A DNA stretch of 64,000 nt from Saprospiraceae bacterium (GTDB taxonomy: Bacteria > Bacteroidota > Bacteroidia > Chitinophagales > Saprospiraceae), in NCBI GenBank assembly GCA_016715985.1, contig JADJXD010000005.1:13299-77298 (forward strand), in the 5' to 3' direction. The notes under the pieces were generated by a model. The model did not search any database. It saw nothing but the letters and a program-made list of their open reading frames with translations, and had not been told where the DNA came from. Shown here piece by piece: positions 47,139-64,000 of the stretch (within the stretch, counting starts at the first letter, position 1; each line of letters opens with the position of its first letter). Both the position numbers and the translations under genes were made by a program.

Positions 47139-47693
47139 TTATAAAATTTCCATTTGCATTTCAACAATTTGTTTTGAGTTCTTGCCCTCTTCAAAATGGA
47201 GTCTAAACTCCTCCCGTGATAGAAATTCTATCCCGTATTGATTGGCATAGGTCGAAATAATCTCCTCCTCATATCGGTTTATAAAATCTCCATCGCTCAT
47301 TTTGGTTGTGGTCATTGGAACCACAATAAATTCAGGCACGTTGCCCCGTGCATCTTTTTTCTGTAATACGTTTTTTATTAATGCAGGGTTAAAGATTTGC
47401 TTGTGATACTCGTGCAAAGTATCTACATCAATCGGCGTGAGTTCTCCTGTCGTTGGGTCAATGAGTTGGTTAATCTCATTTCGATTCATGTACTCGACAA
47501 TCATCGGGAGTACGTGGCCAAAGTGAAAGCGATATTTCCAGCCTCCGACTCTTTTTACTTCCTGAATAAAAACCTTATACATTCCCTCACCCATTTCATC
47601 AAAGGTTTTCTTTAATGCGTACCGGGATTGATCGGCTAACTTTATTTCGCTGCCGCTTTTTACTTTGGAAATGTATAAGGTTGTGGGTTGCAT
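47139..47693 (-). CDS. hypothetical early protein
   Basis: 184-aa ORF. Confidence 0.4.
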   Translation of the reverse strand: MQPTTLYISKVKSGSEIKLADQSRYALKKTFDEMGEGMYKVFIQEVKRVGGWKYRFHFGHVLPMIVEYMNRNEINQLIDPTTGELTPIDVDTLHEYHKQIFNPALIKNVLQKKDARGNVPEFIVVPMTTTKMSDGDFINRYEEEIISTYANQYGIEFLSREEFRLHFEEGKNSKQIVEMQMEIL

Positions 47694-47696
47694 TGT

Positions 47697-48263
47697 TTAT
47701 AATAAATTGATTTGTGAGTTAGCCCAAACAATAAATGCATCAAACTTTTTTTCAATTTCTTCTTTAACCGCTCCGGCCTCTTCTTTTGTTTGGATTTCGA
47801 TAGTTGACTTTGAGAATCCAGTTAGCCACTTTTTTAGCTTCTCTTTATCACCTGCTTTTGCAAGTTTCTTTTCCGCATCTAATTTGGCCTTTAATTCTGC
47901 TGCTGCTTTGTCCTCTGCATCTTTTTTGGCCTTAGCTTCTGCCTGTTGTTTTGCTTTTAATTCGGCCTCTAATTTGGCGTTCTCCTCTATTTTATCCTTG
48001 AGCTTTGCGTCTACAATTGCTTTTTCTTTTGCTGCTTCAGCCCTTTCTTTTTCGAGTTCCTTTTCCCTCGCCTCCATTTTAGCCTTGAGCGTTGCGTTAT
48101 CGTCTTTAATTCTTTGCCTCTCCGCTTCTTCTGCTTTTTCTTTTGCGATGCGCTCCGCTTCCGCTTTCTTTTCAGCTTCAATTTTATCATTGTACTGCTT
48201 TTCAATTCCTGACAAGTAGGTAGTAAAACCTTGATCGCTCATGTTTTCAAATTCTGATCTCAT
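47697..48263 (-). CDS. Lys/Glu/Ala-rich coiled-coil protein, C-terminal fragment of a larger frameshifted gene
   Basis: Joins 48247-48630 if one base is removed from the T6 run at 48308-48313. Confidence 0.45.
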   Translation of the reverse strand: MRSEFENMSDQGFTTYLSGIEKQYNDKIEAEKKAEAERIAKEKAEEAERQRIKDDNATLKAKMEAREKELEKERAEAAKEKAIVDAKLKDKIEENAKLEAELKAKQQAEAKAKKDAEDKAAAELKAKLDAEKKLAKAGDKEKLKKWLTGFSKSTIEIQTKEEAGAVKEEIEKKFDAFIVWANSQINLL

Positions 48264-48630
48264 TACAACGTCTGTAAATTTTGATACCTGTAAAATTCTT
48301 TGTTGAATTTTTTAACTCCTTTTGTTCGGCTTCAAAACGCTCTCTTGTTTCTTCCTTCCATCGTGCATTTTCTTCAATCTCTTTTGTGAGGAGTTGCATG
48401 GTTTGTTTGGATTTTAACCATAGCTGATCTTCTGTTTTAAAACTTAACATTTGGGCCTGAACTTCGGAACGCTTTGCATCAAACGTCTTTTCTGCTTCCA
48501 GCCTTACTTGTCGAACTCCTAATCTTATGGTGTTGGCAAGCTTCATGTTTACCTTGTCGTTTTCGTCTTTTACGACAATGGAATCTAATTGATCTCTCAT
48601 TTTTGCCACTCCATTAAAAACATGATTCAA
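48247..48630 (-). CDS. central fragment of the same coiled-coil gene
   Basis: An upstream ATG at 48744 (MTTQTQPMQSNEIAIILPQEVEQIAKSVSAEK..) joins this frame if one base is added to the T7 run at 48649-48655. Confidence 0.45.
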   Translation of the reverse strand: MNHVFNGVAKMRDQLDSIVVKDENDKVNMKLANTIRLGVRQVRLEAEKTFDAKRSEVQAQMLSFKTEDQLWLKSKQTMQLLTKEIEENARWKEETRERFEAEQKELKNSTKNFTGIKIYRRCNEIRI

Positions 48631-48751
48631 AACAGATTGAACCTCTGATTTTTTTCTGCTGATACTGATTTAGCTATTTGTTCAACTTCCTGTGGAAGGA
48701 TAATAGCGATTTCATTTGATTGCATTGGTTGTGTTTGTGTTGTCATTTTTT

Positions 48752-49435
48752 TTAAAGATTTATATTGTTTAAATATTCCCGGCACCCGTCAATTCTGCAA
48801 TACAGTTTTTTGATTTGTTCGGGTTCAAATTCATAGTGCTTTTCGTAAATTCTTTTTTCAAGTGGCACATTAGAAAAGTGATAATTTGAAATCATTTGAG
48901 CGGTGAACTCTTTAAATGTTTCGTTATCATCGCTTAGTCCGCTTTGATAATACGCCTTTTTAATTTCCCTTTGTATGATTGAATCGGGAGTGTCAACTAA
49001 ACAATAAACTAAGGTGGCTTTTTTCTTACCAGTCAAGGCCATGTAGCTTTGAAGCTGCCACCAATAAAGTTTATTTTCTTCCCGAATTGATTTTGCGAAC
49101 GTAAAAAAATCCCAACTGCTTTTGATGTCGATGACTTCATCCTCTGTAACAATGTCAGGAGTTCCGATCAGATAATCATTTTGGAATCGTTCTGCATTTT
49201 TAAAGTACAATTCATTTTTAAAATCCGTGTACAAAGTGATAGAATCTTCTTCGACCGCTAAACCTTTTTCAAGGAATTTTGAAACAAGGTCTTTGGACTT
49301 ATTGTATGTGACTTTTATGTAGCACTCATCCAAATATTTCTTGACAGTTTCGCCAAGTGGCTGCGATTTATCCCGACCATTGGTCATCAATATACCAACT
49401 TGGGAAGGTCTGAATTTATAATTGTCAAAATTCAT
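48752..49435 (-). CDS. PD-(D/E)XK exonuclease (YqaJ/lambda-Exo-like) candidate
   Basis: GTPDIV...EVIDIKSS (D...[DE]xK). Translationally coupled to the annealase candidate. Confidence 0.5.
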   Translation of the reverse strand: MNFDNYKFRPSQVGILMTNGRDKSQPLGETVKKYLDECYIKVTYNKSKDLVSKFLEKGLAVEEDSITLYTDFKNELYFKNAERFQNDYLIGTPDIVTEDEVIDIKSSWDFFTFAKSIREENKLYWWQLQSYMALTGKKKATLVYCLVDTPDSIIQREIKKAYYQSGLSDDNETFKEFTAQMISNYHFSNVPLEKRIYEKHYEFEPEQIKKLYCRIDGCREYLNNINL

Positions 49436-50088
49436 TTTACTTCTGCCAGTTTGGTGTCAAATAATTCCTGAACATCTTTATTCAGGTGTGGTCTTAGTTT
49501 TTCCAGCTCGGTTTTGCTTGTGGCCTTGCTGATTAAAAGCATGATTCTTTGAGTAGCCGGATCTTCTTTAATTTCCTGAAACCTTCCGACCAATGAGTCA
49601 TAAGCCATGAGATCTTTGCGGTTTAAGTCTTTTCCAAAGATCCTTCCGATTTTTTCGGCTGCGTCTTTGATTGCATACGTTTCGGCTGCTGGGAGTGCCA
49701 TTTGTACGGCTGCATTTTTTATGTGGTTAAAATCCACAGCTCCTGCTCCCTTGTCTGTTTGCATTGGGGCAGCTCCGACTCCATCTTGAAATAATGTTTC
49801 ACCTGTGATTGGATCGACGTAATAAAGGCGAACATGAACAGCGCATGAGTTTGCAACGACCTTGAAGTCTTTTACCTCGACCCACCATTTTATAAATAGT
49901 GCCGTAAGTAAGTATTCCACTTTGTCAATTGGCAAATACTTTGACTTGTTTGCAAGATCATTTGTTTTAACCCATTTAGCTGGGGGCTCTTGGTTCAGGC
50001 GAACTTGTAAGTCATTCAGTTTGCCTTTGGTTTCATCCATCGAAACCAGCTCATCGTATGTAGGGATTTTTTTAATTGCGGTTGTCAT
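49432..50088 (-). CDS. Rad52/Sak-like single-strand annealing protein candidate
   Basis: YLPIDKVEYLLTALF..WWVEV followed by AAETYAIKDAAEKIGRIFGKDL resembles the Rad52-family core. Recognised by eye only. Confidence 0.5.
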   Translation of the reverse strand: MTTAIKKIPTYDELVSMDETKGKLNDLQVRLNQEPPAKWVKTNDLANKSKYLPIDKVEYLLTALFIKWWVEVKDFKVVANSCAVHVRLYYVDPITGETLFQDGVGAAPMQTDKGAGAVDFNHIKNAAVQMALPAAETYAIKDAAEKIGRIFGKDLNRKDLMAYDSLVGRFQEIKEDPATQRIMLLISKATSKTELEKLRPHLNKDVQELFDTKLAEVK

Positions 50089-50109
50089 TTCATTTAAATT
50101 TGATGATGA

Positions 50110-50319
50110 TTAATTCTGTGTAATTTGTTCAATTGCCCGTTCAACTTTTGAGGCGAGTTCGGGGTGCTTGGGCTGGATGATTGGGATAAGATCATTGAAA
50201 ATTGATTTCATCCTTACCGGGTTCATTGTTTGAAAGTGGGGCAATCCGTTGCCACCTTTGGAAAGGTAAAATGATGCGAGTTTTGCATTCTTGTTACCAT
50301 CAGTTTTGTTCAGATTCAT
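50110..50319 (-). CDS. hypothetical protein
   Basis: 69-aa ORF. Confidence 0.35.
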   Translation of the reverse strand: MNLNKTDGNKNAKLASFYLSKGGNGLPHFQTMNPVRMKSIFNDLIPIIQPKHPELASKVERAIEQITQN

Positions 50320-50418
50320 TTTCAGTAGTTTTTAAAGATTCGATAATTCCGAAATAAATTATTGCGGCTGTGATTGAATAAAAAAGTGCTTGGGTAATTA
50401 TTAGTAAAATCATTTTGG

Positions 50419-50736
50419 TTAATTGTATGATCCGGTTTGTTTTCTTAAAAAGACTCGGCCTGTGCCGATTCCTATTTTTGTTTCAAATAAAAAGGAGTCG
50501 ATTTCTGCGATCTCCCCTCTTATGGTCAATTCAAACATTGAGTTGTAAATCGTGGTTTCGCTTCTGATTTTTCCAAACTGGTTTAACTTTTCAACCATCA
50601 TTTTGGCCTCGCATTGCATTTCTAATTCTTTGAGTCTTAGCCGGGGTATCTTAACTCCGGCCTCATGTTTGCATCCAGGCTGCTGCTCGTTTTTTCGGTT
50701 TTTGTTTTCCATATTCATGAGATTTAGATTTTTCAT
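50419..50736 (-). CDS. hypothetical protein
   Basis: 105-aa ORF. Confidence 0.35.
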   Translation of the reverse strand: MKNLNLMNMENKNRKNEQQPGCKHEAGVKIPRLRLKELEMQCEAKMMVEKLNQFGKIRSETTIYNSMFELTIRGEIAEIDSFLFETKIGIGTGRVFLRKQTGSYN

Positions 50737-50739
50737 TCT

Positions 50740-51210
50740 TTAATTTCCTTTTTCGTGGTCGTGGCGGTAATCGTTGTCGCTATGGTCGAAGTCTGAAATG
50801 TCCTCAGCTAATTGACCTGATCTGCGATAGTGAACATCACAAATCAAGTACAATGTGTCGTGTAAATGCTTTTCGATTCTTTCGAGTGGCACATATTCGC
50901 CTGTGATGTCATCGACTGGGGAGGCTGCTACCTCAATGATTTTTAGCTCGTAATCGGGTGATTCAAAATCCGGGTTAATGATTTGGGCAGTAAACCTGAT
51001 GTCATATAAAACCCCTTCGATGGTGCGCTCTATTTGATGCGCTGAATTTCTTTCTTCCATTGTGATGGGTGGGAAATAAACAAGGTGGTTTTGCGCGATG
51101 GATTTTCTTACACTTAACATTGTATCAAGTGCGCTCTTTGCTTCCTTAATTGCAACGTCAAGGTGGTTTAGCGTTTCGATCGTGTGATGGTCAAGATTTA
51201 ACGTACTCAT
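50740..51210 (-). CDS. hypothetical early protein
   Basis: 156-aa ORF, the first gene after a terminator. Confidence 0.4.
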   Translation of the reverse strand: MSTLNLDHHTIETLNHLDVAIKEAKSALDTMLSVRKSIAQNHLVYFPPITMEERNSAHQIERTIEGVLYDIRFTAQIINPDFESPDYELKIIEVAASPVDDITGEYVPLERIEKHLHDTLYLICDVHYRRSGQLAEDISDFDHSDNDYRHDHEKGN

Positions 51211-51231
51211 TTTGTTTTGTTTTGCATTTTT

Positions 51232-51262
51232 AAAAACCGGGCAGCTATGCGCAACCGCCCGG
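51232..51262 (-). terminator. rho-independent terminator
   Basis: Minus strand: CCGGGC-N14-GCCCGG followed by U5. Confidence 0.5.
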
Positions 51263-51367
51263 CTGGTTCCAAAATTCCATTCTTGGGATGGTTCCGATTG
51301 GTCGGATTTTATGAACGAAGCATCTTTGATATTTTAAATTCCTATCTATATAGAAATTCCTAATATG

Positions 51368-51625
51368 TTAATTTTCAACGGATTGCATCAAATTCCGCTT
51401 GGCTTGTTGTAATTTTGCCAAATAACCGAGCAAGTCATGCACAGCGTAATACTTTGACCTTCCAAGATTAATGGAAGGGATTTGCCGGGAAATCAACTTG
51501 AAGGCTTGTGGCCCCATTCCTAAGTATTGAGCCGCTTCTTCATAATTTTTTAACCCTGCTTCGATCGCTGCCTGTGGTTTCGTCTTGGTTGTCATTGTGT
51601 AATTGTTTATTAAATTGTAGTACAA
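51368..51625 (-). CDS. excisionase/MerR-like HTH DNA-binding protein (probable start at 51595)
   Basis: YEEAAQYLGMGPQAFKLISRQIPSINLGRSKYYAVHDLLGYL fits the excisionase-family HTH pattern. The -7 box lies inside the first codons of the listed ORF. Confidence 0.5.
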   Translation of the reverse strand: MYYNLINNYTMTTKTKPQAAIEAGLKNYEEAAQYLGMGPQAFKLISRQIPSINLGRSKYYAVHDLLGYLAKLQQAKRNLMQSVEN

Positions 51626-51654
51626 ATATACTATTGTCTTTACGTATTTGTCAA
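51623..51654 (-). promoter_or_regulatory. early promoter candidate
   Basis: Minus strand: TTGACA-N18-TATATTTG. Confidence 0.5.
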
Positions 51655-51714
51655 GTTTTTGGGTAATTATTTTACACTTTTGTTTATAATTTTTAAATAA
51701 TAATATATAACGTT

Positions 51715-51840
51715 TTGACAGGCAAAGACTTAGAAAATATTATAAAATTATTGAGGTTCACCAATACGGAGGCAGCAAACATTCTTGGGGTTACTCGCCA
51801 AACCCTGTACACATGGATAGGCCGAGCAAAATGCCGTTAA
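51715..51840 (+). CDS. 41-aa Cro-like HTH protein (TTG start; not in the ORF track)
   Basis: ..RFTNTEAANILGVTRQTLYTWIG... This is the only convincing plus-strand gene. It is divergent from the 51368-51625 operon. Confidence 0.4.
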   Translation: MTGKDLENIIKLLRFTNTEAANILGVTRQTLYTWIGRAKCR

Positions 51841-51867
51841 GGTGTTTGGGATTTTGAATGATAGGAA

Positions 51868-52092
51868 TTAATCAAGGTCTTTAATTTGGAGCGAAATATC
51901 TACCCCGACAAATTCAGCTATTTTCAAAAATACATCCACCGAAGGGCAAAATTTCCCGTTTAGCATTTTGCTTAAATTCGCCTGATCTATCCCGGTTTTG
52001 GCCTCAATGTCCTTTTGGGTTATGCCTTTGTCGTATGCTGCCTGAAAGACATATTTTAAAAGCAGTAACCGGGATTCTTTTATTTTGGTCAT
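51868..52092 (-). CDS. XRE-family HTH regulator (repressor or antitoxin-like)
   Basis: GITQKDIEAKTGIDQANLSKMLNG is a classic XRE helix-turn-helix. Confidence 0.65.
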   Translation of the reverse strand: MTKIKESRLLLLKYVFQAAYDKGITQKDIEAKTGIDQANLSKMLNGKFCPSVDVFLKIAEFVGVDISLQIKDLD

Positions 52093-52337
52093 GGTTTTAT
52101 TGTTTGAGTGATTAGTGCTTTATGGCACTCCATAGATCGGTCTTCATGGCAAACTTCAAAATCCATAATTATGTAATCTTTTGAATAATATATCTTTCTC
52201 GCCACAATAAACCGTAGCTGAATATCACTACAAAGTTCTTGGATTGCTTTTCCAAGTTTGCCTTTTGGCACAAAACTCTTGGGCCACAAAATATCAAACA
52301 GGTTTAACGATTTGGCAAGTTCAAAGTCCAATACCAT
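52089..52337 (-). CDS. small protein translationally coupled to the XRE regulator (toxin-like position)
   Basis: ATGA overlap with the downstream HTH gene. I found no recognisable motif. Confidence 0.3.
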   Translation of the reverse strand: MVLDFELAKSLNLFDILWPKSFVPKGKLGKAIQELCSDIQLRFIVARKIYYSKDYIIMDFEVCHEDRSMECHKALITQTIKP

Positions 52338-52433
52338 TGTGTCTACTTAGTAAATCAAATTCCTTTTTTTCAGAAGAACTATCGCTCATTCTATTAAGGC
52401 CTTTTAGTAGTTGATTTTCAAAACAATCCGCAT

Positions 52434-53046
52434 TAAAAAGAGGTAACTATATACTTATTGGGACTAAATTCATTCCTCCGAAAGTCCAAAATCTCATTTT
52501 TTAGACTTTCTTCTTTACAGGCGTATAATCCGGTTTTGGTTCTTTAACCAACGCCTTGATTACCTGATCAAATGTACCGTGTATCTTTAACGGCTTATCG
52601 TATTTTGAAGCCCGAACTTTTGGTTCTTTTGGGGCTTTGTCAGGAATGCAAAGATCTTAATGATGCCGGAAAATAGTCCCTGTCTGACAATGGAGACGAA
52701 ATTCTAATTCATTAAATGGTTTATCCCAATTGTTACCAATTGAAATTCCATCGGTAACATCTGAATAAACGGTTGTCTTTCTATATACTCGCTTTGCGTC
52801 CGATACATTCAGGTTATGCATTGCACACAATTCGTATGCCCGTATCAAATCAAATTCATCACCAAAAAACCTAACAGTTGGAACATCAAAACAATGCCCC
52901 CTTCCTCCCTGACAAGATTCAAATGTTTCAAATCCGTATTTATTTAGTAATGCAACTGCTTCTCGGATGCCAAAATCAAGACCCTCTATTTGATCAACAT
53001 CAAATTTTTTATTTAGTCCCATTAGCTATATAGTTACCTAAAAAGA
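52434..53046. mobile_element. 597-bp transposon-like element: 28-bp terminal inverted repeats plus an 8-bp target-site duplication
   Basis: Inverted repeats at 52442-52469 and 53011-53038 (25/28 matches). TAAAAAGA lies directly outside both ends (52434-52441 and 53039-53046). Confidence 0.65.
52657..53022 (-). CDS. cargo ORF of the inverted-repeat element, unknown function
   Basis: 121 aa with its ATG inside the right inverted repeat. 51 further sense codons follow the TAA in frame, to 52501. Confidence 0.4.
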   Translation of the reverse strand: MGLNKKFDVDQIEGLDFGIREAVALLNKYGFETFESCQGGRGHCFDVPTVRFFGDEFDLIRAYELCAMHNLNVSDAKRVYRKTTVYSDVTDGISIGNNWDKPFNELEFRLHCQTGTIFRHH

Positions 53047-53582
53047 TATTTCCCGTTGTCGCTTGACCAGCAAAAAAATTCAGTGTGTTTCATATAATTT
53101 TACTTTACACGTATTTCAATAGCCTGATCCCAATTACTTTGTTAAAATCTCTTTAATCAAAGAGATATTACTGATGCTTATTGCCCTAATGCAATCGGAA
53201 GGAGTTAATCCTTTATAGCCTGTTTTGGCAGCAATCATCCCACCAATTGCATATAAATCATTTTGAGTGAAATGATTCAGGAACTTCAACTCGTAAGGAG
53301 TAAGACAGTTTTGGTTTTCGCTTACACTTTATTATCTTCTTCCCAAAAGGGAAAGGGGGCAACGTTTAAAAACCCCGGTTTTTTTTTCCCCCGGAGGTTA
53401 TTATGTTCTTGGTCTTTTCAAAGAAGTTCTGTTTGATGTGTTTTTTGGAACCCAGAGATAAATTGTTTTCATTTTAATTTGTTTTGTTGTTAATTAATGA
53501 TACAAAGATATGGCCTATTTGCCATATTCCTATACCCTAAAAGGCTATTTTTAATATATTTATTATTGTAATATGTTTGCTG

Positions 53583-53597
53583 GTTACAACTTGTAAC
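53583..53597. promoter_or_regulatory. 15-bp palindrome GTTACAA-C-TTGTAAC (operator-like)
   Basis: Read directly from the sequence. Lies in the ORF-poor end region. Confidence 0.35.
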
Positions 53598-53608
53598 GGT
53601 TTGCTTGT

Positions 53609-53643
53609 GGGGTAAGTTGGGGGGTATCTTAGGGGGTAATCTT
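53609..53643. repeat. three G-rich direct repeats (GGGGTAAGTT / GGGGGGTATCTT / AGGGGGTAATCTT)
   Basis: Read directly from the sequence. This composition is unique in the window. Confidence 0.5.
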
Positions 53644-53849
53644 TTGCGCAAAGTACCAAAAGTCGTTGCTTATTGCACAAAATTTCTAAATGTCCACGCT
53701 CCGTGAACACTTCGCCAAAATGAACGATAATGCGGAAATTCGCCTTTATGTGCGATCGGGTATAAAAATGGTTTATTCGGGCAAATTATATCTAAATAGG
53801 TATAATTTATAGCAACCTTGTCAGGCTTAAGCTGACACAATGAATATGA

Positions 53850-55061
53850 TTAATAACAAAAGATCGGGGCCTTTATGGTCATGCCTTTTTTTGAGTCAAT
53901 CAACGAATAACTCTGCATCGGATTTTCAGGACTTGCTCCAATACTTTGAGCATACACGTTAAACCCTATCCCGGAGCCGTTTACAATGCAGTCCTTTGTT
54001 GCTTGGAATAATTGATGATAATGCCCCATGAAATTATAATTAGCCTGTATCTGTTGGTTATAGCGGTGAATTGCTTTAATTAAAGGCACGGTTAGTCCTC
54101 CAATACCGCCCTGATAGCTTACTGTATCTCCATGCCAAAAGCGGCAAGTGTAGTCGTAAATGTCGCAATAAGAAAATAGGCCGTTTGGTATTTTAAACTC
54201 CACCCGTGTTTCGCCTTTCTGATTGAAGTAATCCGCTATATCATTGTACATCATCCACTCGTAAGAATTGCGGTAAGATGTTGCTATTTGCTTTTGCTTT
54301 GTTACCCGGCCATGATTTCCGTAACTACAAACAGCAATAATCTTCTTGTATTTTCCATGCTCCAAATAAAATTCAATGGCTGCAATAATGTTCTTTTTTG
54401 CAAAACGCACTGCCATTGTTGGGCTTAAGGAGTTCACTTGTTGCATTTCTTCGTGGATGTACCCGGTAATAAAATCACCGCCCAGCCATAAAACAAGGTT
54501 ATCAATTTGGGAGTGATTTCGGTCTATGTTTACAAGTCTTTGACTGTTTTGAATGCACCTTGACCACCTCTTTTGAGCAATCTCTAAATTGTATTCATTC
54601 AAATCATTTATTGTCTGAGGATCGACCGTTTCTTCGAAGTGCCAATCACTTAATAAAATTACCGGGGTAGCATGGTTTTTATTGTCGTTTTCCTTTGGTC
54701 TTTCAATGCTTGGAATCTCGTCTCCTTCTTTTATTGCCAACAGGAAATCGCATCGCTGTTCCAAAACTTCGTACTCTTTTAATAGGTGCTTGTACTTGGC
54801 CTCTGCCTGTCGTGCAATTGCCTTTTCTCGGTTTAACATCCGATCATTAAAGATCAATTCTGCTGCTGACGCTTCGCGCTTAGGTTGCTCCTGTACATTT
54901 GGTGCGCTACCCCTTACGTGGTCATATAGCTTTTTTCTGATGTAATTTCTCGGAGCATTTAATTCATTGGCTACTTTTAAAATAAAGTCGCTTCGACCTT
55001 CTCGTGGTGTGTTTCTAAATGCTTCTATGTAATTAGTGAGGTTATATTTTTGCTCTGCCAT
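53850..55061 (-). CDS. calcineurin-like metallophosphoesterase with an N-terminal HTH/coiled-coil extension (copy 2, complete)
   Basis: LLSDWHF (DxH), GGDF, YGNHGR, WHGD and GHYHQ motifs in canonical order. Confidence 0.7.
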   Translation of the reverse strand: MAEQKYNLTNYIEAFRNTPREGRSDFILKVANELNAPRNYIRKKLYDHVRGSAPNVQEQPKREASAAELIFNDRMLNREKAIARQAEAKYKHLLKEYEVLEQRCDFLLAIKEGDEIPSIERPKENDNKNHATPVILLSDWHFEETVDPQTINDLNEYNLEIAQKRWSRCIQNSQRLVNIDRNHSQIDNLVLWLGGDFITGYIHEEMQQVNSLSPTMAVRFAKKNIIAAIEFYLEHGKYKKIIAVCSYGNHGRVTKQKQIATSYRNSYEWMMYNDIADYFNQKGETRVEFKIPNGLFSYCDIYDYTCRFWHGDTVSYQGGIGGLTVPLIKAIHRYNQQIQANYNFMGHYHQLFQATKDCIVNGSGIGFNVYAQSIGASPENPMQSYSLIDSKKGMTIKAPIFCY

Positions 55062-55064
55062 TAC

Positions 55065-55505
55065 TTAAATTTTTAACCAAACGAACGCAAACAAATCGGG
55101 ATGAATGACCGGGTTACGGCCCCTGTTCTCGAATCTGCACATTTCGTTTATTATTAAATAGATTTCCTCTCGCTTCCATCTGATAACCTGTCGTGATCTC
55201 ATGCCCGTGCCAATTGAAACGGCCTCATAATATGGCTGTAACTCCGTGCCGGGTCGTGCATATTTATTTATTAACTTCTCTATTGTATTGGCCTTGTCTA
55301 AGTGGATGTAATTGCATACCGTTGCCAGCATTGCATGAATGCCGTTATGGTAAAAGTCGAATGACTCATAAACCTTTTGGCCCGACTTTGTGGTCTTTCC
55401 TGTCCATGCCATTTTTGAAATATAGATACCTCCCGGATTATTGAGTTTCATTAGCCGGGTGGCATTGGGGTAATTTTCAAATGTTATCAATTCGGGTGTG
55501 GTCAT
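55065..55505 (-). CDS. phage late protein of unknown function (copy 2)
   Basis: 146 aa, differing at 1 residue from 605-1045. Confidence 0.5.
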   Translation of the reverse strand: MTTPELITFENYPNATRLMKLNNPGGIYISKMAWTGKTTKSGQKVYESFDFYHNGIHAMLATVCNYIHLDKANTIEKLINKYARPGTELQPYYEAVSIGTGMRSRQVIRWKREEIYLIINEMCRFENRGRNPVIHPDLFAFVWLKI

Positions 55506-55939
55506 AAAGTCCTGTAACCGAGTAGCCTTGATTTTTTGAAATCTGCAATTGAAACACTATCCATTGAATTGCCGGATAGCAATTTTACCGTGTCGAGATT
55601 TTCGTTTATGTAAAGTCCTATGTGTCCTTTTCCGGGGCCTCTTTCCAAAATGCACAAATCCCCAAGTTTGGGATGATCTGTTTTAGTTCCGACCTCTAAG
55701 AATTTACGAGCTGCAACAATATGTAATTTATTGCTGGGCCAAATGCCGGACTCGATTAAAATATTTGAAACGAAACATCCACACCATGCGAACTGTGAAT
55801 CGTCTTCCGGGCGTGAAATTTTGAGGGAATCGCATGAGGCGAATATCCACGCCTTTACTGTTTCATCCCAGCCAATTGGATTTTCTTTTGTGCCGAGATA
55901 TTTTATCCCGGTGAGAAATAGCTTTTCAGAATTATTCAT
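55502..55939 (-). CDS. NlpC/P60-like (TIGR02594-like) cell-wall peptidase, endolysin candidate (copy 2)
   Basis: Same motifs as copy 1, with a few substitutions. Confidence 0.6.
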   Translation of the reverse strand: MNNSEKLFLTGIKYLGTKENPIGWDETVKAWIFASCDSLKISRPEDDSQFAWCGCFVSNILIESGIWPSNKLHIVAARKFLEVGTKTDHPKLGDLCILERGPGKGHIGLYINENLDTVKLLSGNSMDSVSIADFKKSRLLGYRTL

Positions 55940-55959
55940 ATAGGTCTGTTTTTTGAAGT

Positions 55960-55990
55960 AAAAAAACAGGGCAAGGCGTTACCCCTGCCC
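55960..55990 (-). terminator. rho-independent terminator (copy 2)
   Basis: Same stem and U7 tract as at 1500-1530, with one loop substitution. Confidence 0.6.
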
Positions 55991-56005
55991 CGTGTCATAA
56001 TTTAC

Positions 56006-56407
56006 TTATTGGGATTTCCTGATAAGTGCGACCTCGCAATCCACTTTTAAAGACTGTGTGCCGGAAGTTATCGAAGTAAATCTCAATGCCCCACAGGGCA
56101 CGTTTCCGGTGATCGCTGCCGGGGTTGTTTGAACTCCGTCAATTGTTACAGTTGACAAAGTTTTCCAAACGTTTCCACCATAGAGCCTGTGTTCAACTTT
56201 GAACGTTCCGGTTGTTGTGCCAGAGAGTGAATCCGCAACCACATTGATATGATAGTTGTAAGGATAAGTCAAATCCAAACAAGTATTTACTACTGTGTCC
56301 GCATTTGTCAGGGTGTCGAGATATGTTCGTACTGCTGTACTTGCGTTTCCGTCAACCCTTGTGTTTTGCGCTTCGACCGAAAAGGCGAAGGCCACAAAAG
56401 AAATCAA
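56006..56407 (-). CDS. secreted small protein (copy 2; 5' end frameshifted, signal-peptide start lost)
   Basis: A5 here versus A6 in copy 1 just after the ATG. The C-terminus is 14 aa longer than in copy 1. Confidence 0.5.
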   Translation of the reverse strand: MISFVAFAFSVEAQNTRVDGNASTAVRTYLDTLTNADTVVNTCLDLTYPYNYHINVVADSLSGTTTGTFKVEHRLYGGNVWKTLSTVTIDGVQTTPAAITGNVPCGALRFTSITSGTQSLKVDCEVALIRKSQ

Positions 56408-56523
56408 GATTAAAAATACTTTTTCATAGTTCTTAAATATTTAAGGTGAATAAAAAACAGTTTTAAAAACAGGGCAAATTTGACCTAAGCCGCCTTTGCC
56501 CCATTGCTGATATGAAACACAAC

Positions 56524-56916
56524 CTATTTTTTGGCTGTTAAAGGCTTGATACTGGATTCTCCTTTGGTAATCGTTCTCAATACCACGTTAATAATTGCGA
56601 GTAATAATCCTGCAATCGTTGGAATCCAAGTTGAATCACATACCCAAGCCTTGTTGAAAAGCTGAAATACGAATGTCAGAACTTCGCAAACCCATTGTGA
56701 AATACCTGTCCAGTCTTTCGCCTCCATAAAAGTGATAATAACGGCCAGCGTATTTATCAGAATGGTTCGTGATCCTTCGAGTGCAGCCCAAATCTTACTC
56801 ACTCCCGGAATAAGTTTAATGGCCCAAAAAAGAGGTTGTGGGATTTTTATAATCAAATCCGCAATTGTTGTAAACAGTTTTAGGATGAACTGCAAAACCG
56901 TAATTACTGTGTTCAT
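56524..56916 (-). CDS. holin-like multi-TM membrane protein (copy 2, intact)
   Basis: 130 aa with several hydrophobic segments and a basic C-terminus. Lies next to the endolysin candidate. Confidence 0.5.
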   Translation of the reverse strand: MNTVITVLQFILKLFTTIADLIIKIPQPLFWAIKLIPGVSKIWAALEGSRTILINTLAVIITFMEAKDWTGISQWVCEVLTFVFQLFNKAWVCDSTWIPTIAGLLLAIINVVLRTITKGESSIKPLTAKK

Positions 56917-56927
56917 ATAGTTGTTAT

Positions 56928-57152
56928 TTAAAATGGTTTAATGTTGTGAGTGCATGAATCTTGCATTATTTTTTCCGTCAGGGTGTCTATTCTTTTATTC
57001 AGAATTTCCATTTCTTCGAGTAGTTCGTTTTCCGTTACCGATATTTCGAGCCTTTCAAAATCTGCCTTTGTGGTTTTTAGTTTTACAGGCTCAAACAAGG
57101 CGGCTGCACATAAAGCAGCAAGCCAAAACAAAACGATCTTTGCCTCTGCCAT
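56928..57152 (-). CDS. membrane-anchored coiled-coil protein (copy 2)
   Basis: Differs at 1 aa from 2467-2691. Confidence 0.4.
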   Translation of the reverse strand: MAEAKIVLFWLAALCAAALFEPVKLKTTKADFERLEISVTENELLEEMEILNKRIDTLTEKIMQDSCTHNIKPF

Positions 57153-57424
57153 TACTCAATAATATTTTCAAGGTTTTCAATTTTAATATTTGCACTCTCA
57201 ATTTGTGATATCATATATTCTGCAAATTGATCCAGCTTCATTTCACATCTTTTATGCGCTTCCTTACACTCTTTCAGTTGTTCCATTACAAAAGCATCAT
57301 TGAGTTTATTTTCTGCCCTCCATTCATTCCAAAGGATGTAGATTATCAAAGTTGATCCCATGAAGATTAACCTTGATTTTTCATCCTTGAATGCCTTTAA
57401 TATGAGGTCTAATATCTTTTGCAT
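57152..57424 (-). CDS. membrane-anchored coiled-coil protein (copy 2)
   Basis: Translation identical to 2691-2963. Confidence 0.4.
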   Translation of the reverse strand: MQKILDLILKAFKDEKSRLIFMGSTLIIYILWNEWRAENKLNDAFVMEQLKECKEAHKRCEMKLDQFAEYMISQIESANIKIENLENIIE

Positions 57425-57567
57425 TGGTTTTCTATTAGGTTGGTTTGCAAAATGATTTTATAACTCCAATATTTTTATAAATGCTTTGGCAACTGCATTT
57501 GGTAAAGTTTGATTTGTATCAGAATTTGTGATCTCTTTTTTTGTGGCATGGTTTTTTGTTTTTTTGG

Positions 57568-60500
57568 TTAATTTAATATTGCTCCGTAGCATAGTTTTTG
57601 TACATAAATATCCCTTGCGTTTGATCCGACTCCTTTAAAGATTCCTGTTCTTGGCCCGATTGGTAAATTATTAGCAAGTGGACTTGCCATTTTGCCAACA
57701 TACACACCGTCGATATAAAATCTAATTTCGCTGTTGGCTTTGTTGAGTTCTGTTCTAAGTGTATAGTTGACATCCACTGCCACAGCAATTCCTAAGTCCA
57801 ACAACGTTTCAGAACCTCCTGAATTTTTTGTGTATCCAACCCAATTACCCCCATAAACTCCGTGAGAATATCTAATGCCATAAGACGAGTTAGGAAGTTT
57901 AGAAGTTGAAAAAGGAGAACTTGCAACAACCCCTGATACAATTGTGAAAGAGTCTGTACCAGTTGACAATGTATTCATGGTCAGCATTGATTCCGTATAA
58001 AAATGACATTGGCTTGTAAGACCTGGAGATTCAGCCGTTTTTTGCAAATACACAACTGTTGCCCCTGATGCTGATGTTTGTGTGCCAAGATACCAAGCCG
58101 AGAGTGGCGTATTTCCATTTGACGCCTCCTGCGAATATGACAATCCTGATGCTGTTGCGAAAGCGATATTTCCCAAATCTCCTGCCGTTGTCGAGCCGGG
58201 AGCGTGGCAATCATCAACCGTTTTAAATCCTGTCGGTCTTTTGTAGCCAATGGGAACCCAACGATCCAAAGTACCATCGTAATAAAATCGAATAGAACTT
58301 TTCTTCATTAAAATCAAATCTTCCGAAAAATGAATGCGATTGGCTGCTGTTCCATCTGTGTGTTCCGGTGCGAAATACAAATTATAATCCCCAACATTTA
58401 CAATGGTCTTTTCTTCCCCATCTGTTTGTGCCTCCATTGAAGTGATCCCCCAGAATCCATCTGAAGAAACCCGTACAATATTTGCATCTCCAAACCCTGT
58501 TGGATTATAGTTGTCTTGTTCGCTTGTTATTTGCGATGGAGTTATTACTGATGGTGTTATTGTTTGCCAGTTGGCATTTGCTCCGTCTGACATGAGGACT
58601 TGTCCTGCTGTTCCTTTTGATCCGTTTATGTCAATTCTTAGTGTTTGGGGTTTTAGATTTATTACATCGGACCTAACATAAATGGAGTCAGAATCCACAT
58701 CAATTTTGGAGTTGTCCGTTCCATCGTTTGCGTATAACTGAGCGTAGTTTTCATTAGCATAAATCCAGCATTCATCTGTTGTCTTGGTGTTCTTAATAAT
58801 CCATGATCCATTTTCCGAATAAATCCGACTAAAAATATTATTCGTGGAATCATTTGCATACATATAAATCTCATCATCAAACCAAAAACCCCTATCTGCA
58901 TTTGTGATGGCTCCTGATGGATAATTCTTAATATATCCCATCATAAAATCAGCTCCGCGATTAAATGAGATGTAATCATTGTCTCCCATTAAACCGTTTT
59001 GGACTTCGGTAAAACTGACAGCGTTGTTATCGACTGACCAAACACCCCCCGAAACAGTTATATCTCCATAATCTGCATCACTTACCCCACCAGTTGCGGT
59101 TAAGTCATATTCAGTACCAGCGTCATTTTTGAAATATAACTTTCCATCCGTTTTCGCATAAGTATATCCAAAACCACTTGCCGGAGTTGAAGGGGCCGCT
59201 ATCTCTGCTGTTTTTAATTGTTTATCGAATTGAGTTTCGCCTGAAAATAAATTCAAAGTATTTGCCCCTGATTGATAAATTCCATAAGTAGATGCATTGG
59301 AATAAGGAATATTTACACCTCTGTAAGTTGCACTTGCTAAACTGGTTAAAGTTGGGTTTATGTTTAATCCTATTTGTGCGCCGCTTCCAGTTGAAGTAAT
59401 GTTATAAACGTTTGCAATTTCTATGGCTGTCATTGTTCCACTTCCCGAAGCTTTGACATATTCATCGCGAAATTTCATAATGTCCTTGTCTAAGCCAGGT
59501 GCAGTAAAATCGCTTATGGCATCGCCTATGAAAATACTTGATGTGTCGTTTTGTACATTAATACTTATACCATCGAGATTATCATTTATGATTGAAATTC
59601 CTTGATCTGATGTGATCTCATAGTCTAATTGAGGAAAGACCCCAGCGTTGTTTATAACAACATTATCCCCGGTTCCAACTGTTAACTGATCGGAAATTCT
59701 TACTGTTGGAGTTTCGATTTCAACTGAATCAACTTCAACTCTTATCGTGGTTGTGGTTCCATTTGTTGCATAAATAGCAAAATAATCCTTCCATTGGTCT
59801 ATTTCTGTGTATTGTGTGTTTGCGGTGTTTGTTGCCCTAATTGCAAGTTGATCGTCCATTCTTATATAAGAGTAGGCAGCATTTACGCTATCTGCTCCCA
59901 TTAAATAGACCTTGCCGCTTGATCCCTCAAAAAATAGCCCTCTGTTTCTTGGTGTGGTTCCCAAAGTTGGGAAATTATAAAAATACCCAAGTCCAAAATC
60001 ATCAGGGTTTGCGATGCTTGTCGCTGTTTGTGCGTAAGTACCATCTGATACTGTGCCATCGCCTCCATAAATACCACCACCAGAAGAAATCAATGTTGTT
60101 CCTGACATTGATAACCCGGAGCCCAATGTAATAGCTGCAATATTTCCAGTTGATCCCCTGCCAAGTAATTGAGAAGCAGATAAAGCTACTTCTGCCACAT
60201 TAGCTGACCCTGCTGTATTATTTGCAAGAACTGAATTTGCGGCAACGTTTTGAAGTTTTGCATAGGTAACTTGATCGTCTCCAATGTCTGCTGTGGCAAT
60301 TGCTCCGTCGTTTATTTCAGTTGTAGTAATTGTTGAAGCGTCGATGTTCCAAACAGTTCCACTACTTGAAACCGTTATATCTCCTTTGTCTCCATCTGAA
60401 ACGCCTGTTACATCTGATAAGTAGGCAATCGTTTCACGGGTGGCCCCTGTGGTTTTGGTAAAGTAAAGTCTATCTGTTAAAAACTCAATTGCCCCAACTT

Positions 60501-63500
60501 CTTCCGTTGTTAAAAGTGAGCCTGAATTTAATTTGATCGGTGCGGTATTAGCAGAAGTTGACCCGGCTTGAATATGAAGTTTTGCCGTTGGATTGGTGAT
60601 TGCGGTTCCCCCTCCTGAAATTGAAACCATGCCATCGGGATCAATCCTCATTCTTTCATTGGCCGAGGCAAGGCCCCCGGTTGCAAAAACGATTTCGTCG
60701 GCTCCTTCTGTGATTAATCTTAAACCTGCGCTTGTGCTTGTATTAGTTTTAATTACTGCTGAACTTGCAGCAAACAATCCGCTTGTTGAATAAGATGCTC
60801 CGAGGTGATAAATTTCAAGGCCCTGTGTTCCAAGTGTGCCGCCCGGCTCCAAAATTTCGACAAGTGAATAATCCGACGTAGAATTTGAAAGCCCAAAGAC
60901 ACCATCTGCCCCGGCTGTGTTTCTTAGAATTATTCCTGTTAAATTTCCGTTTGTGTACCCGTGTATTTTACCCCCGGTGTTTGAAATTATTTCACTACCT
61001 GATCCTGCTGCAAATGTTGCAGAAGAATTAAAGGTTTTGGCTCCTCCAAATGTTTGTGTTCCCGTTGTTACGGCTCCACGATTTGAGGCACTTGCATCAG
61101 GCAAATTAAAAGTGTGAGTACTTCCTGAACTTGAAATATTAAAGTTAGTTCCCGATGTTCCAACGACCATTGTTTGAGCCACATCTGTAAGCCCATTTAT
61201 AGAAGTTATGCCTCCGCCTCCGCTTACTTTTATTGAGTCGTTTGAAATAGTTAAACCATTTCCTATAACCAACTCTTGAACGTCTCCTGTACCTCCGGTA
61301 TATCTTCCTAAAACCTTACCTGTTGCCATGTTTTGTATTTTGGCGTAGGTTACAGCGTCGTTATCTATGGTCATAGTTAACCCACTTCCCGAAGTTGTCA
61401 GGTCTCCAAAATCTCGGTCATTAATTGCAAGTAATGGAGTGCCGTCAACATATTGAAGTGAGGTGTTTATCATCGCTCCAACTGCATCCTGAGCGTCCTC
61501 AGTTGTGAATCCTCCTGATGAATTAATTGTGAGAGCGGTTCCAGTTCTTGAGATCGTTATTCCTGTGCCCTCAACAAAAGAAATATCTGAGGCCGTGCCT
61601 GACAAGTCCAGTGTAAAAGTCGTACCATCGTCTGACCCGGAAAATCCTTGAGCGTCTGTGTTATCCAAGTAAGCAGCCAACGAAACTGAATCTCGAATTA
61701 CACCGTCATCATCGAGTGAAATTCTTAGAAAATTATTCGTTATGTCGAGCGTGTCAATGCTTTGGTTATCGGTGTCAACTTCTGTAATGTCGATCGTGTT
61801 GCCTCCTGAAATTGTGATTTCGTCTGTGCCTGAATTGTAGCTTAATGTTTGAGCGTCTGTGTTATCAAGATAAGGGGCAAGGTTTACAGTTTTAAAAACC
61901 TGTGCATCATCTTCGAGTGATAATCTTAAAAGATTTGAGGCAATTTCAAAAGTGTCTATCGTTTGATTGTCGGCACCGGCTGGAATTGTTATGATTTTTC
62001 GGTTTTCCCCATCATTTAAAAGAGATAAGAAAATTGTATCATTTGATCTTGTGAATGTGTCAATAGTTTGGATTTCATTAGTTGCGGAGCTATCATTTAA
62101 AACCACAAATCCACCGCCTAAATCAAGCCTTAAAGTTCCTTTTCCTGCGGTTGCCGTGAGTGCCTGAATTTCGTTTGAAGTTGACCCGTCAATTTCTGTG
62201 GCATCAATTGTCAAAGTGTTGGCCGCAGGGTTGTAATCCGTTGTTACAATTCCTGATCCTTCAAAAGTTACTGTTTGATTTGAAATTACTTCGGTGTCTG
62301 CATCATCTCCATCAATTGTCCACGCTTCATTTGTTACAGAGCCGTCCACTTCCGAGCCATTGGACGCTGATGTTATCCTTCCGTCTGCATCAACTGTTAA
62401 TGTTGCGAGTGTGTAAGTGGCTGGTGTAACGGCTGTGCTTATTAATTCACTTGCTCCAACTGAATTAGCGGTTATGTGATCGACTCCCACCGCATTTGAA
62501 ATGATTTTAACGGCTGTAACCGAGCTATCGGCAAGGTCAACGGTGGCAACTCCTCCGGTGGCTATTTCTGTGCTTCCAATTACTCCTGCGTCTATTTCCC
62601 AAACCGAGCCGCCTGAAACAGTAATGTCTCCTTTGTCTCCATCGCTTATTCCTCCGGTGGCCGTTAAATCAAACTCTGTTCCTGCATCGTTTTTAAAATA
62701 AATAAGTCCGTCGGTTTTTTCATACAATCTTCCATAACCACTTGCCGGGGTGCTTGGTGCTGAAATCTCTGCCGTCTCAATGTAGTTTCCAAATATCGTT
62801 ACTCCGGTGAATAAGTTTCTTGTATTAGCTCCATTTTGATAAATGCCATAACTTGTTGCATCATCGTAATTCATGTACACCCCACGAACGCCCCCATTTG
62901 TGGCCGTGATCGTTGGATTAATATAAATTGGAGCATACCATCCAGCCGCCCCTCCTGTTTGGTTTATTGTTTTACCAAAATAAAAATCCGCTAAATCTCC
63001 CGTGCCACTTGTTGGTTGAAATGTATTTTCAAACGCCCATTCTTTCTTAAGTCCTGCCGTGTGAGTTCTTCCATTTGATGCTAAGTGCCCGTAAACAGAA
63101 GTTGCGCCACCTTGAATATCAAAATACATAGCGGCTCCTGATGTGGCTGTGCTTTGAATTGTAAGTGTATTGTTATTTGCACGTATAGAATAATTTTGAG
63201 CTGCTGAAATGGAGCTCGCCCCAATGCTTACAGCATTTGATGTTCCGACGCTTAGAATTGAGGATGTAGATATACTGGCCCTCTTTGTGCCGTTGGTTTC
63301 AAAATTCAAAGCAAAATTATCGTTGGTTCCTATGGTGATTTCTGCCCCGTTTGTATTCCCATTTTGAATTATAAAATCTGTGGTGGCATCCGTTGGGGTA
63401 ATTGTGCCATCAGTAATTTTGGCAGATGTTACAGCGTTGTCGGCCAGTTTCCCGGTCGTTACTGCTAAATCATTTATCTTGCCTGTGGTAACAGCTAAGT

Positions 63501-64000
63501 CATTTATCTTAGCAGTTGTTACGGCTGCATCATTTATTTTTATCGTTGTGATAGCGTTTGTGTCAACTGTCCAAACTGTGCCCGTAGATGTAACGTCTAT
63601 GTCTCCATAATCTCCATCGGCAATGCCTCCGGTGATGTCAGATAAATAAGCAATTGTTTCCCTTGTTGCTCCTGTTGTTTTAGTGAAATAAAGACGATCA
63701 GAATTAAATTCCAACGCCCCAACTTCGGGGGTTGTATTTAGTGATCCTGATGTGAATTTTATTGGCGCTGTTCCGGCTGCTGTGCTTTGTGCTGCAATAT
63801 GTAGTTTAGCGGTTGGATTATCAACTGCCGACCCATTAGCAGCAAGTCCTACGTTTCCACTTAAGGAAACATTTAATCTTTTTGTTCCGTTAGTCCATAA
63901 CGAAAGATCATTATTTGCTTTATAGTAAGAGTGTTTTAAATTGCCTATTGCTGATATGGTAAATGAAGAATCGGCTCTTGCAACAACTCTTGAAGACGAG
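57568..64000 (-). CDS. giant modular tail fibre (allele 2; 5' end beyond the window; C-terminal domain fused)
   Basis: The frame is open from 57568 to the window edge; the listed start at 63714 is only the first TTG. Shares blocks with allele 1 but has different modules and an insertion of roughly 400 codons. Confidence 0.75.
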   Translation of the reverse strand, partial: SSSRVVARADSSFTISAIGNLKHSYYKANNDLSLWTNGTKRLNVSLSGNVGLAANGSAVDNPTAKLHIAAQSTAAGTAPIKFTSGSLNTTPEVGALEFNSDRLYFTKTTGATRETIAYLSDITGGIADGDYGDIDVTSTGTVWTVDTNAITTIKINDAAVTTAKINDLAVTTGKINDLAVTTGKLADNAVTSAKITDGTITPTDATTDFIIQNGNTNGAEITIGTNDNFALNFETNGTKRASISTSSILSVGTSNAVSIGASSISAAQNYSIRANNNTLTIQSTATSGAAMYFDIQGGATSVYGHLASNGRTHTAGLKKEWAFENTFQPTSGTGDLADFYFGKTINQTGGAAGWYAPIYINPTITATNGGVRGVYMNYDDATSYGIYQNGANTRNLFTGVTIFGNYIETAEISAPSTPASGYGRLYEKTDGLIYFKNDAGTEFDLTATGGISDGDKGDITVSGGSVWEIDAGVIGSTEIATGGVATVDLADSSVTAVKIISNAVGVDHITANSVGASELISTAVTPATYTLATLTVDADGRITSASNGSEVDGSVTNEAWTIDGDDADTEVISNQTVTFEGSGIVTTDYNPAANTLTIDATEIDGSTSNEIQALTATAGKGTLRLDLGGGFVVLNDSSATNEIQTIDTFTRSNDTIFLSLLNDGENRKIITIPAGADNQTIDTFEIASNLLRLSLEDDAQVFKTVNLAPYLDNTDAQTLSYNSGTDEITISGGNTIDITEVDTDNQSIDTLDITNNFLRISLDDDGVIRDSVSLAAYLDNTDAQGFSGSDDGTTFTLDLSGTASDISFVEGTGITISRTGTALTINSSGGFTTEDAQDAVGAMINTSLQYVDGTPLLAINDRDFGDLTTSGSGLTMTIDNDAVTYAKIQNMATGKVLGRYTGGTGDVQELVIGNGLTISNDSIKVSGGGGITSINGLTDVAQTMVVGTSGTNFNISSSGSTHTFNLPDASASNRGAVTTGTQTFGGAKTFNSSATFAAGSGSEIISNTGGKIHGYTNGNLTGIILRNTAGADGVFGLSNSTSDYSLVEILEPGGTLGTQGLEIYHLGASYSTSGLFAASSAVIKTNTSTSAGLRLITEGADEIVFATGGLASANERMRIDPDGMVSISGGGTAITNPTAKLHIQAGSTSANTAPIKLNSGSLLTTEEVGAIEFLTDRLYFTKTTGATRETIAYLSDVTGVSDGDKGDITVSSSGTVWNIDASTITTTEINDGAIATADIGDDQVTYAKLQNVAANSVLANNTAGSANVAEVALSASQLLGRGSTGNIAAITLGSGLSMSGTTLISSGGGIYGGDGTVSDGTYAQTATSIANPDDFGLGYFYNFPTLGTTPRNRGLFFEGSSGKVYLMGADSVNAAYSYIRMDDQLAIRATNTANTQYTEIDQWKDYFAIYATNGTTTTIRVEVDSVEIETPTVRISDQLTVGTGDNVVINNAGVFPQLDYEITSDQGISIINDNLDGISINVQNDTSSIFIGDAISDFTAPGLDKDIMKFRDEYVKASGSGTMTAIEIANVYNITSTGSGAQIGLNINPTLTSLASATYRGVNIPYSNASTYGIYQSGANTLNLFSGETQFDKQLKTAEIAAPSTPASGFGYTYAKTDGKLYFKNDAGTEYDLTATGGVSDADYGDITVSGGVWSVDNNAVSFTEVQNGLMGDNDYISFNRGADFMMGYIKNYPSGAITNADRGFWFDDEIYMYANDSTNNIFSRIYSENGSWIIKNTKTTDECWIYANENYAQLYANDGTDNSKIDVDSDSIYVRSDVINLKPQTLRIDINGSKGTAGQVLMSDGANANWQTITPSVITPSQITSEQDNYNPTGFGDANIVRVSSDGFWGITSMEAQTDGEEKTIVNVGDYNLYFAPEHTDGTAANRIHFSEDLILMKKSSIRFYYDGTLDRWVPIGYKRPTGFKTVDDCHAPGSTTAGDLGNIAFATASGLSYSQEASNGNTPLSAWYLGTQTSASGATVVYLQKTAESPGLTSQCHFYTESMLTMNTLSTGTDSFTIVSGVVASSPFSTSKLPNSSYGIRYSHGVYGGNWVGYTKNSGGSETLLDLGIAVAVDVNYTLRTELNKANSEIRFYIDGVYVGKMASPLANNLPIGPRTGIFKGVGSNARDIYVQKLCYGAILN

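Follow-up and report, generated by a model that had tools for sequence, protein, structure and literature searches.

Gene content of the window

The stretch of DNA described here, referred to as the window, comprises 64,000 nucleotides (nt) of contig JADJXD010000005.1, which is filed under a Saprospiraceae bacterium, and its genes, all of which lie on the minus strand, are those of a siphovirus-like phage. The main feature of the window is a block of late genes that is present at both ends in two related versions, here assigned to unit 1 on the left and unit 2 on the right, with the backbone of the phage genome present once between them. In order, the block holds a metallophosphoesterase/exonuclease-like gene (the nuclease gene below), genes for a 146-amino-acid (aa) protein and a CHAP lysin, further genes for one secreted, one membrane and two small proteins, and the 3' end of a giant fibre gene. 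This gene content had been proposed in a sequence-only reading of the window and is borne out by open reading frame (ORF), PHROG and Pfam results. The arms of the repeat, the genes within them and the regions that separate them are as follows.

1..4582, minus strand: left arm of the high-identity repeat (unit 1), with the 5' 200 codons of the nuclease gene (the window start cuts this gene), the lysis genes and the fibre 3' end
54461..59044, minus strand: right arm of the high-identity repeat (unit 2), 97.9% identical to 1-4582
53850..55061, minus strand: nuclease gene of unit 2, 403 aa, matching phrog_284 'exonuclease' (E 1.9e-42) and identical to MBK9258152.1 (IPM42_22155)
605..1479, minus strand: 146-aa protein and 145-aa CHAP-type lysin of unit 1 (phrog_873, phrog_1259, weak CHAP match), found at 55065-55939 in unit 2
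1546..1967, minus strand: secreted protein gene of unit 1, its C-terminus frameshifted at ~1600, where a CCGG is lost
56006..56427, minus strand: secreted protein gene of unit 2, its start and signal peptide lost through a change from A6 to A5 (plus strand) at 56411
2064..2455, minus strand: membrane (holin-like) protein gene of unit 1, with a frameshift at 2365 (A5 versus A6); the intact 130-aa version lies at 56524-56916
3107..10383, minus strand: fibre allele 1, 2425 aa after repair of a 1-nt deletion at 3905 and 2176 + 249 aa as found
57568..64000, minus strand: fibre allele 2, a mosaic by comparison with allele 1, with a DUF5907 repeat and a frame of at least 2143 aa that is still open where the window ends
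10388..53022, minus strand: backbone, present once in the window, annotated by ORF, tRNA, Pfam and PHROG scans
53023..53849, no strand: non-coding DNA that separates the nuclease gene from the first of the early genes

The repeat was examined by blastn self-comparison of the 64-kb window, which aligns 1-4582 with 54461-59044 in 4585 columns that contain 92 mismatches and 4 gap openings (97.906% identity). The offset between the arms, 54460-54462, is one full genome unit. The alignment given in the sequence-only reading, of 1-4570 with 54461-59032 at these same offsets, is thus confirmed, and its scattered substitutions of ~1-3% with 1-nt indels resolve into 92 substitutions and four 1-nt indels. 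A sharp breakpoint in identity lies at 4582/59044. The copies had also been described as mosaic further into the fibre, and beyond the breakpoint the comparison indeed gives collinear, diverged fibre blocks of 70-87% identity, together with a segment of ~1.3 kb in fibre 2 (59045-60347) that has no counterpart in fibre 1. The diverged blocks are the following.

4575-5592 and 60348-61362: 70% identity
5749-6780 and 61321-62352: 84.5% identity
7033-7256 and 62326-62549: 87% identity
7259-7623 and 63524-63888: 79% identity

Substitutions between the arms

Fundamental to any explanation of the repeat is the nature of the differences between its arms. Across the nuclease gene and the genes for the 146-aa protein and the CHAP lysin, 26 of the 35 differences fall at third codon positions, with a synonymous divergence (dS) of 0.086, a nonsynonymous divergence (dN) of 0.0086 and hence a dN/dS of 0.10 (Nei-Gojobori). 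Because of this third-position excess and this low ratio, the substitutions are real, selection-filtered strain divergence and not errors, and the dN/dS value upholds the earlier view that the arms are not error-made variants of one sequence. It is highly improbable, therefore, that the arms are truly the same sequence with differences that consist of Nanopore consensus errors removable by polishing. The assembly is Nanopore-based by attribution, and the four indels and the further frameshifts considered below do look like such errors, but errors of this kind account neither for the codon pattern of the three genes nor for two fibre alleles that differ by 13-30% and by kilobase-scale insertions although each retains an open frame of over 2100 codons. 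Nor do they account for the presence of unit-2 alleles in short-read contigs of other samples, where 37/40 (L034) and 33/36 (L035) of the sites that differ between the arms show the unit-2 allele.

The divergence is unevenly spread along the block. For the small genes at 2467-3131 dS is ~0 and for the final 249 codons of the fibre it is 0.011, whereas the 225 codons that lie upstream of these give 0.20; such variation (~0 to 0.20) is the pattern of recombining strains. The last 249 codons of the fibre (3107-3856 and 57568-58317) are a case of their own, with 11 nonsynonymous against 2 synonymous changes and a dN/dS of ~1.7, albeit from small numbers, where the fibre codons next to this tip and the lysis genes have values of ~0.1. 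The tip domain has no Pfam match, and the ratio suggests that it may be under diversifying selection as a receptor-binding tip. A diversity-generating retroelement was considered as the source of the fibre differences and rejected, there being no adenine bias in the substitution spectrum and no reverse transcriptase domain (Pfam).

Indels and frameshifts

Each of the four 1-nt indels (1600/56061, 1951/56411, 2365/56826 and 3905/58367) disrupts a gene in a single arm. In unit 1 the secreted protein is deprived of its C-terminus (1600), the membrane protein of its N-terminus (2365), and the fibre is interrupted (3905); in unit 2 the secreted protein is left with no start (56411). Two of these indels lie in A5/A6 runs. 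All of these genes are intact in L011, a relative at 75% identity, and the corresponding genes are intact in the near-identical short-read contigs L024, L025, L026 and L034. For instance, the membrane protein has a 129-aa homologue in L011 and is encoded by 130-aa genes in L024 and L025, and both L011 and fibre 2 read through the point at which fibre 1 is split. At the 1600 site L011, L034 and L026 show the state of unit 2, and at the 56411 site L034 and L026 have the 6-base run of unit 1. Since each gene is broken in only one arm and is intact in L011 and the short-read contigs, these frameshifts, which are private to the source contig, look like Nanopore consensus errors left by polishing. 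Two more frameshifts, in T4/5 and A6/7 runs of the backbone (~36,790 and ~38,065), interrupt HsdM and HsdS, and these splits may be assembly errors rather than real pseudogenes. An overlap of ORFs 10388-11182 and 10944-11579 was also considered as a frameshift and rejected, as it resembles a normal gene start with signal peptide.

Both of the indels that lie outside homopolymers (1600 and 3905, equivalent to 56058-56061 and 58364-58367 in unit 2) destroy a CCGG; unit 2 retains it in both cases, and the short-read contigs do so at the 1600 site. This observation was made post hoc and could be a coincidence or could reflect a methylation-related Nanopore consensus error. Strains of the phage carry different methyltransferase cassettes, such as a C5-methylase in the related contig L027. 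Errors at methylation motifs were rejected as a general cause of the differences between the arms, since 16/18 CCGG sites are the same in both arms and other motifs are not enriched.

The source contig beyond the window

The cluster of nuclease proteins contains two members, MBK9258097.1 (IPM42_21855) and MBK9258152.1 (IPM42_22155), from a single contig of 97,444 bp labelled 'MAG: Saprospiraceae bacterium' (MAG, metagenome-assembled genome). The first is a complete protein of 403 aa whose residues 1-200 equal the translation of window positions 2-601 (200/200), and the second is the unit-2 protein (403/403). The record of the first therefore extends leftward, and the length of the contig corresponds to 97,444/54,460, or 1.79, units. 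Exact look-ups of 20 further window proteins gave a map in which the locus tags rise with the window coordinates. On this map structural genes recur to the right of the window (IPM42_22205, 22225, 22265 and 22280), to the tape-measure gene at least, and an early gene has a further copy to its left.

IPM42_22205, right of the window: 227 aa, two substitutions relative to unit 1, copy of 11582-12265
IPM42_22225, right of the window: 391 aa, frameshifted (versus 417), copy of 14642-15895
IPM42_22265, right of the window: 287 aa, truncated (versus 385), copy of 21843-23000
IPM42_22280, right of the window: 50-aa piece equal to tape-measure residues 1339-1388
23007-27548, in the window: tape-measure gene of unit 1
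IPM42_21815, left of the window: third allele of the window gene 50740-51210

IPM42_21815 lies eight genes before the first nuclease gene, where the spacing in unit 1 is four genes. Beyond the right window end unit 2 extends for 13.5 kb or more and becomes increasingly frameshift-ridden, a fragmentation as expected at a thinly covered contig end, and several mid-genome genes at 27660-34186 have no second copy at 90% identity or more. Given the extra gene copies on both sides of the window, the source contig is a partial unit 0 followed by a complete unit 1 and a partial unit 2, with at least three haplotypes in series, and it appears to end inside the second tape-measure gene; a placement of the window at 16,001-80,000 of the contig would be compatible with these gene positions. 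The claim that the last ~10 kb of the phage unit is duplicated thus holds for the window, which sets this size, and not for the source contig, where the duplication passes both window ends and the part that is covered twice amounts to ~43 kb (97,444 - 54,460). There is no host gene in the window, and the flank proteins recovered on both sides are those of a phage. The inspection for bacterial flanks proposed in the sequence-only reading has yielded phage proteins alone, with ~11-15 kb of the contig unseen.

The circular map and the phage

The order of fibre, lysis genes, nuclease and early genes runs uninterrupted through five independent short-read assemblies (L011, L024, L025, L031 and L032). 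Because the adjacency of nuclease and early genes is contiguous in all five, the map is circular and the stretch at 53023-53849 is the native junction between units, not an assembly seam. A scan of this stretch for repeats like those of att, cos or ori sites, for promoters and for terminators gave nothing above chance. The large terminase TerL (31463-32722) has as its sole PDB match the nuclease domain of SPP1 G2P (E 4.6e-5). SPP1 packages its DNA by a headful mechanism, so this likeness provides a weak hint that the genome may be circularly permuted. Pfam and PHROG scans that covered every ORF of at least 150 aa in the complete unit detected no integrase, recombinase, repressor or partition domain.

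Alongside TerL and the tape measure the backbone encodes a portal-like protein, an S49 protease, a PAPS-reductase-like protein, a remnant island of type I restriction-modification genes, a DnaC-like ATPase, methyltransferases, a resolvase-like protein and exonucleases. A Megablast comparison of 23.6 kb from the backbone with the INPHARED phages gave no match, no exact 40-mer was found in IMG/VR, and in the same database TerL has relatives at 38% identity or less only. The nuclease protein has no match among the GTDB representative genomes. This is a previously undescribed phage of ~54.5 kb from activated sludge, Bacteroidota-type and siphovirus-like.

Assembly of the contig

What, then, has placed two versions of the same late genes in one contig? 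A second contig with pieces of the same phage, L027, is JADJXI010000010.1 (IPM51_... tags), which Singleton et al. 2021 list in their supplement as MAG Kalu_18-Q3-R12-55_MAXAC.082. Judging from the locus-tag prefix and the nearness of its accession to this verified IPM51 MAG, the IPM42 MAG probably derives from the same set. In that study MAGs were recovered from activated sludge with Nanopore reads assembled by Canu v1.8, the polishing consisted of Racon, two rounds of medaka and Illumina-based Racon, and duplicated overlaps were removed only from contigs with suggestCircular=yes (PMC8012365). In a benchmark of long-read assemblers by Wick & Holt, the contigs that Canu produced from circular replicons usually exceeded 100% contiguity, and small replicons reached up to ~200%, which is to say that the replicon was duplicated within one contig (PMC6966772).

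The favoured reading, to which we assign a probability of roughly 80%, is that the window is the middle of an untrimmed Canu contig that makes ~1.79 laps of a circular phage map of ~54.5 kb and joins different strains in silico. The manner in which Canu made this path is, we infer, as follows. One activated-sludge sample would have contained several closely related strains of one phage, which share ~98% identity across most of their length and differ strongly in the fibre and parts of the early region. Where the sequence is shared (98-100% identity), reads from different strains would overlap, and at the fibre and early cassettes they would part, so that a path which switched strain in the shared stretches would unroll the circle into a spiral of 1.79 laps. 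Such a path would begin with the early genes of a partial unit 0, pass through the whole of unit 1, enter unit 2 with its other fibre allele and come to a halt inside the tape-measure gene. As the variable loci intervene, the 43-kb prefix of the contig would not be near-identical to its 43-kb suffix, and probably no circular flag was raised; as trimming was applied to contigs with suggestCircular=yes only, the overlap would never have been removed.

In accordance with a wrap-around of this kind, the offset equals one unit, the contig is longer than one unit and the junction is a native adjacency. The arms are not the same apart from errors, for they differ by selection-filtered substitutions and by mosaic fibres, and because they are not the same sequence this is the mixed-haplotype variant of the artefact and not a plain self-overlap. 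Most likely there is no genome that has this duplication, and probably no single DNA molecule carries both fibre alleles. What the artefact does show to be real is that co-occurring strains differ mainly in a giant modular fibre (~2400 aa) and in cassettes of the early region, and it places two of the fibre alleles side by side. It also calls for caution, in that collections of long-read MAGs hold phage contigs that are longer than one genome and chain different strains, with inflated genome sizes and apparent paralogues or pseudogenes, and that can be mistaken for tandem prophages or host-linked elements.

Alternative explanations

The sequence-only reading had left three options unranked, namely an assembly wrap-around that captured two fibre haplotypes, tandem lysogeny and a duplicated late module, of which the first is favoured here. 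That the array is instead physically real, either as two or three related prophages lying head to tail in one Saprospiraceae chromosome or as a replicative hetero-concatemer produced by recombination between co-infecting strains, is unlikely. It would fit with units that are exactly head to tail at a period of one genome, with a contig that is binned with a bacterial MAG and is in part unseen, and with a more distant nuclease homologue (54% identity, P0026) that is also located in a contig of a Saprospiraceae MAG; the frameshifts, too, could mark decaying prophage copies. The complete unit, however, has no integrase, recombinase or repressor domain, neither the window nor the recovered flank proteins include a host gene, and three distinct haplotypes in series would be required. 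Purifying selection between the units (dN/dS 0.10) misfits decaying copies, the frameshifts lie mostly in homopolymers and become denser towards the contig end, and the lineage is binned elsewhere with a different bacterial family. The units of rolling-circle concatemers are identical, which counts against the replicative form. A more specific version, which is less likely again, is that one molecule carries three distinct but closely related genomes of a Bacteroidota siphovirus that lacks an integrase, arranged head to tail, either as a carrier-state and possibly episomal array in a Saprospiraceae host or as a hetero-concatemer built by recombination. If it were true, several receptor-binding fibre alleles would be kept in one cell. 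As for a single phage genome with two late modules or with a long diverged terminal repeat, this is extremely improbable. Within the window alone only the late module of ~10 kb is seen twice, as such a genome would require, but copies of structural genes lie to the right of the window and a third early-gene copy lies to its left, for a total of 1.79 units, and the relatives L011, L024 and L031 have one module per genome stretch. Terminal repeats are regenerated at packaging and are identical, whereas the arms here differ by at least 2%.

A number of points weigh against the wrap-around through mixed strains. Within the window unit 1 has three frameshifts and unit 2 has one, which misfits a simple scheme of a good first lap and a poor second lap. 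The two fibre alleles could, with low probability, be physically linked, and the ~11-15 kb of contig that is unaccounted for leaves room for a host flank. For many early proteins no domain can be recognised, and an integrase of an unconventional kind may have escaped. The 440 aa that are specific to fibre 2 gave just short DUF5907-type matches among 5.8 billion proteins, and no close match to this segment was found elsewhere, so that the fibre-2 haplotype is seen in the source contig only. Finally, the assignment of the IPM42 MAG to Singleton et al. rests on closeness of tag and accession and not on direct look-up.

Binning provides no evidence for integration. The same phage lineage has been binned in two families, Saprospiraceae (IPM42) and AKYH767/b-17BO (IPM51; NCBI label Sphingobacteriaceae), and because these are two different Bacteroidota families, the assignment of a host by binning is unreliable here. 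The IPM51 contig L027 is very indel-rich relative to the window, with 53 gap openings in 3.9 kb.

Comparison with known systems

The closest parallel is the start-end overlap or concatemerisation of circular replicons in Canu assemblies (PMC6966772), in which, as here, the contig exceeds one replicon, the period is that of the replicon, the junction is native and the probable assembler is one known for the behaviour. It differs in that the arms in the present contig are different strain haplotypes, at least three of which are chained, and this is probably why the circular flag was missed.

In tandem polylysogeny, which occurs with lambdoid, CTX and Stx phages, related prophages lie head to tail at one att site. 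The present contig likewise has whole-genome units that are related, non-identical and in direct order, but no integrase or att site was detected in it, no host flank is seen and its partial end units are phage DNA. Headful redundancy of the SPP1/P22 type and long direct terminal repeats of the T5/SPO1 type are identical within a molecule and make up a few per cent to ~10% of the genome. They share with the contig the occurrence of the same genes at both ends of a linear representation, and TerL weakly resembles SPP1 G2P; unlike them, the arms here differ by 2-30%, the overlap is ~79% of the unit and the duplication passes both window ends. The fibres themselves present nothing unusual for the mosaicism of phage receptor-binding fibres, with their conserved C-proximal part, shuffled DUF5907 modules, sharp breakpoints and excess of amino-acid changes at the tip. 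They are unlike the targets of a diversity-generating retroelement in their lack of adenine bias and of an accompanying reverse transcriptase domain.

Other features of the phage genome

The restriction-modification island is a low-GC region at 34239-39146 (33% versus ~40%) that holds type I remnants, with HsdS and HsdM in two pieces each, a C-terminal fragment of HsdR and a DUF488 protein. Next to it lies a tRNA gene that is kept in the related strain of L027.

39935-40008, minus strand: tRNA-Met (CAT), between the restriction-modification island and the DnaC-like ATPase gene

In L027 a 121-aa cassette stands in place of the whole island. This 121-aa gene is present in the window at 52657-53022 (within the region 52634-53047), behaves as a mobile cassette and has no Pfam or PHROG match. 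It is found at 100% identity over 405 nt in the Logan contig L028, where it adjoins a transposase of the IS1595 family and a pair formed by a BglII-like endonuclease and an MT-A70 methylase, and it is 99.3% identical in L027, at a different place in the related phage genome. Unit 1 carries ~2.1 kb at 51742-53819 where L024 has ~0.4 kb. Tandem repeats of 54 bp (94-97% identity) occur at 46763-47020, inside the gene of a hexapeptide-repeat (left-handed beta-helix) protein at 46553-47122.

A homologue of the nuclease at 58% identity (P0015) is encoded at 10001-11236 of the 113.6-kb contig L029 (ENA ERZ27240679 k141_488621), which is crAss-like and has crAss_MUZ and CrAss_Ring_1 domains near this locus. 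The contig had been followed as a lead to a prophage context and says nothing on lifestyle. The occurrence of the homologue in a crAss-like contig shows that the gene family is common to unrelated groups of Bacteroidota phages.

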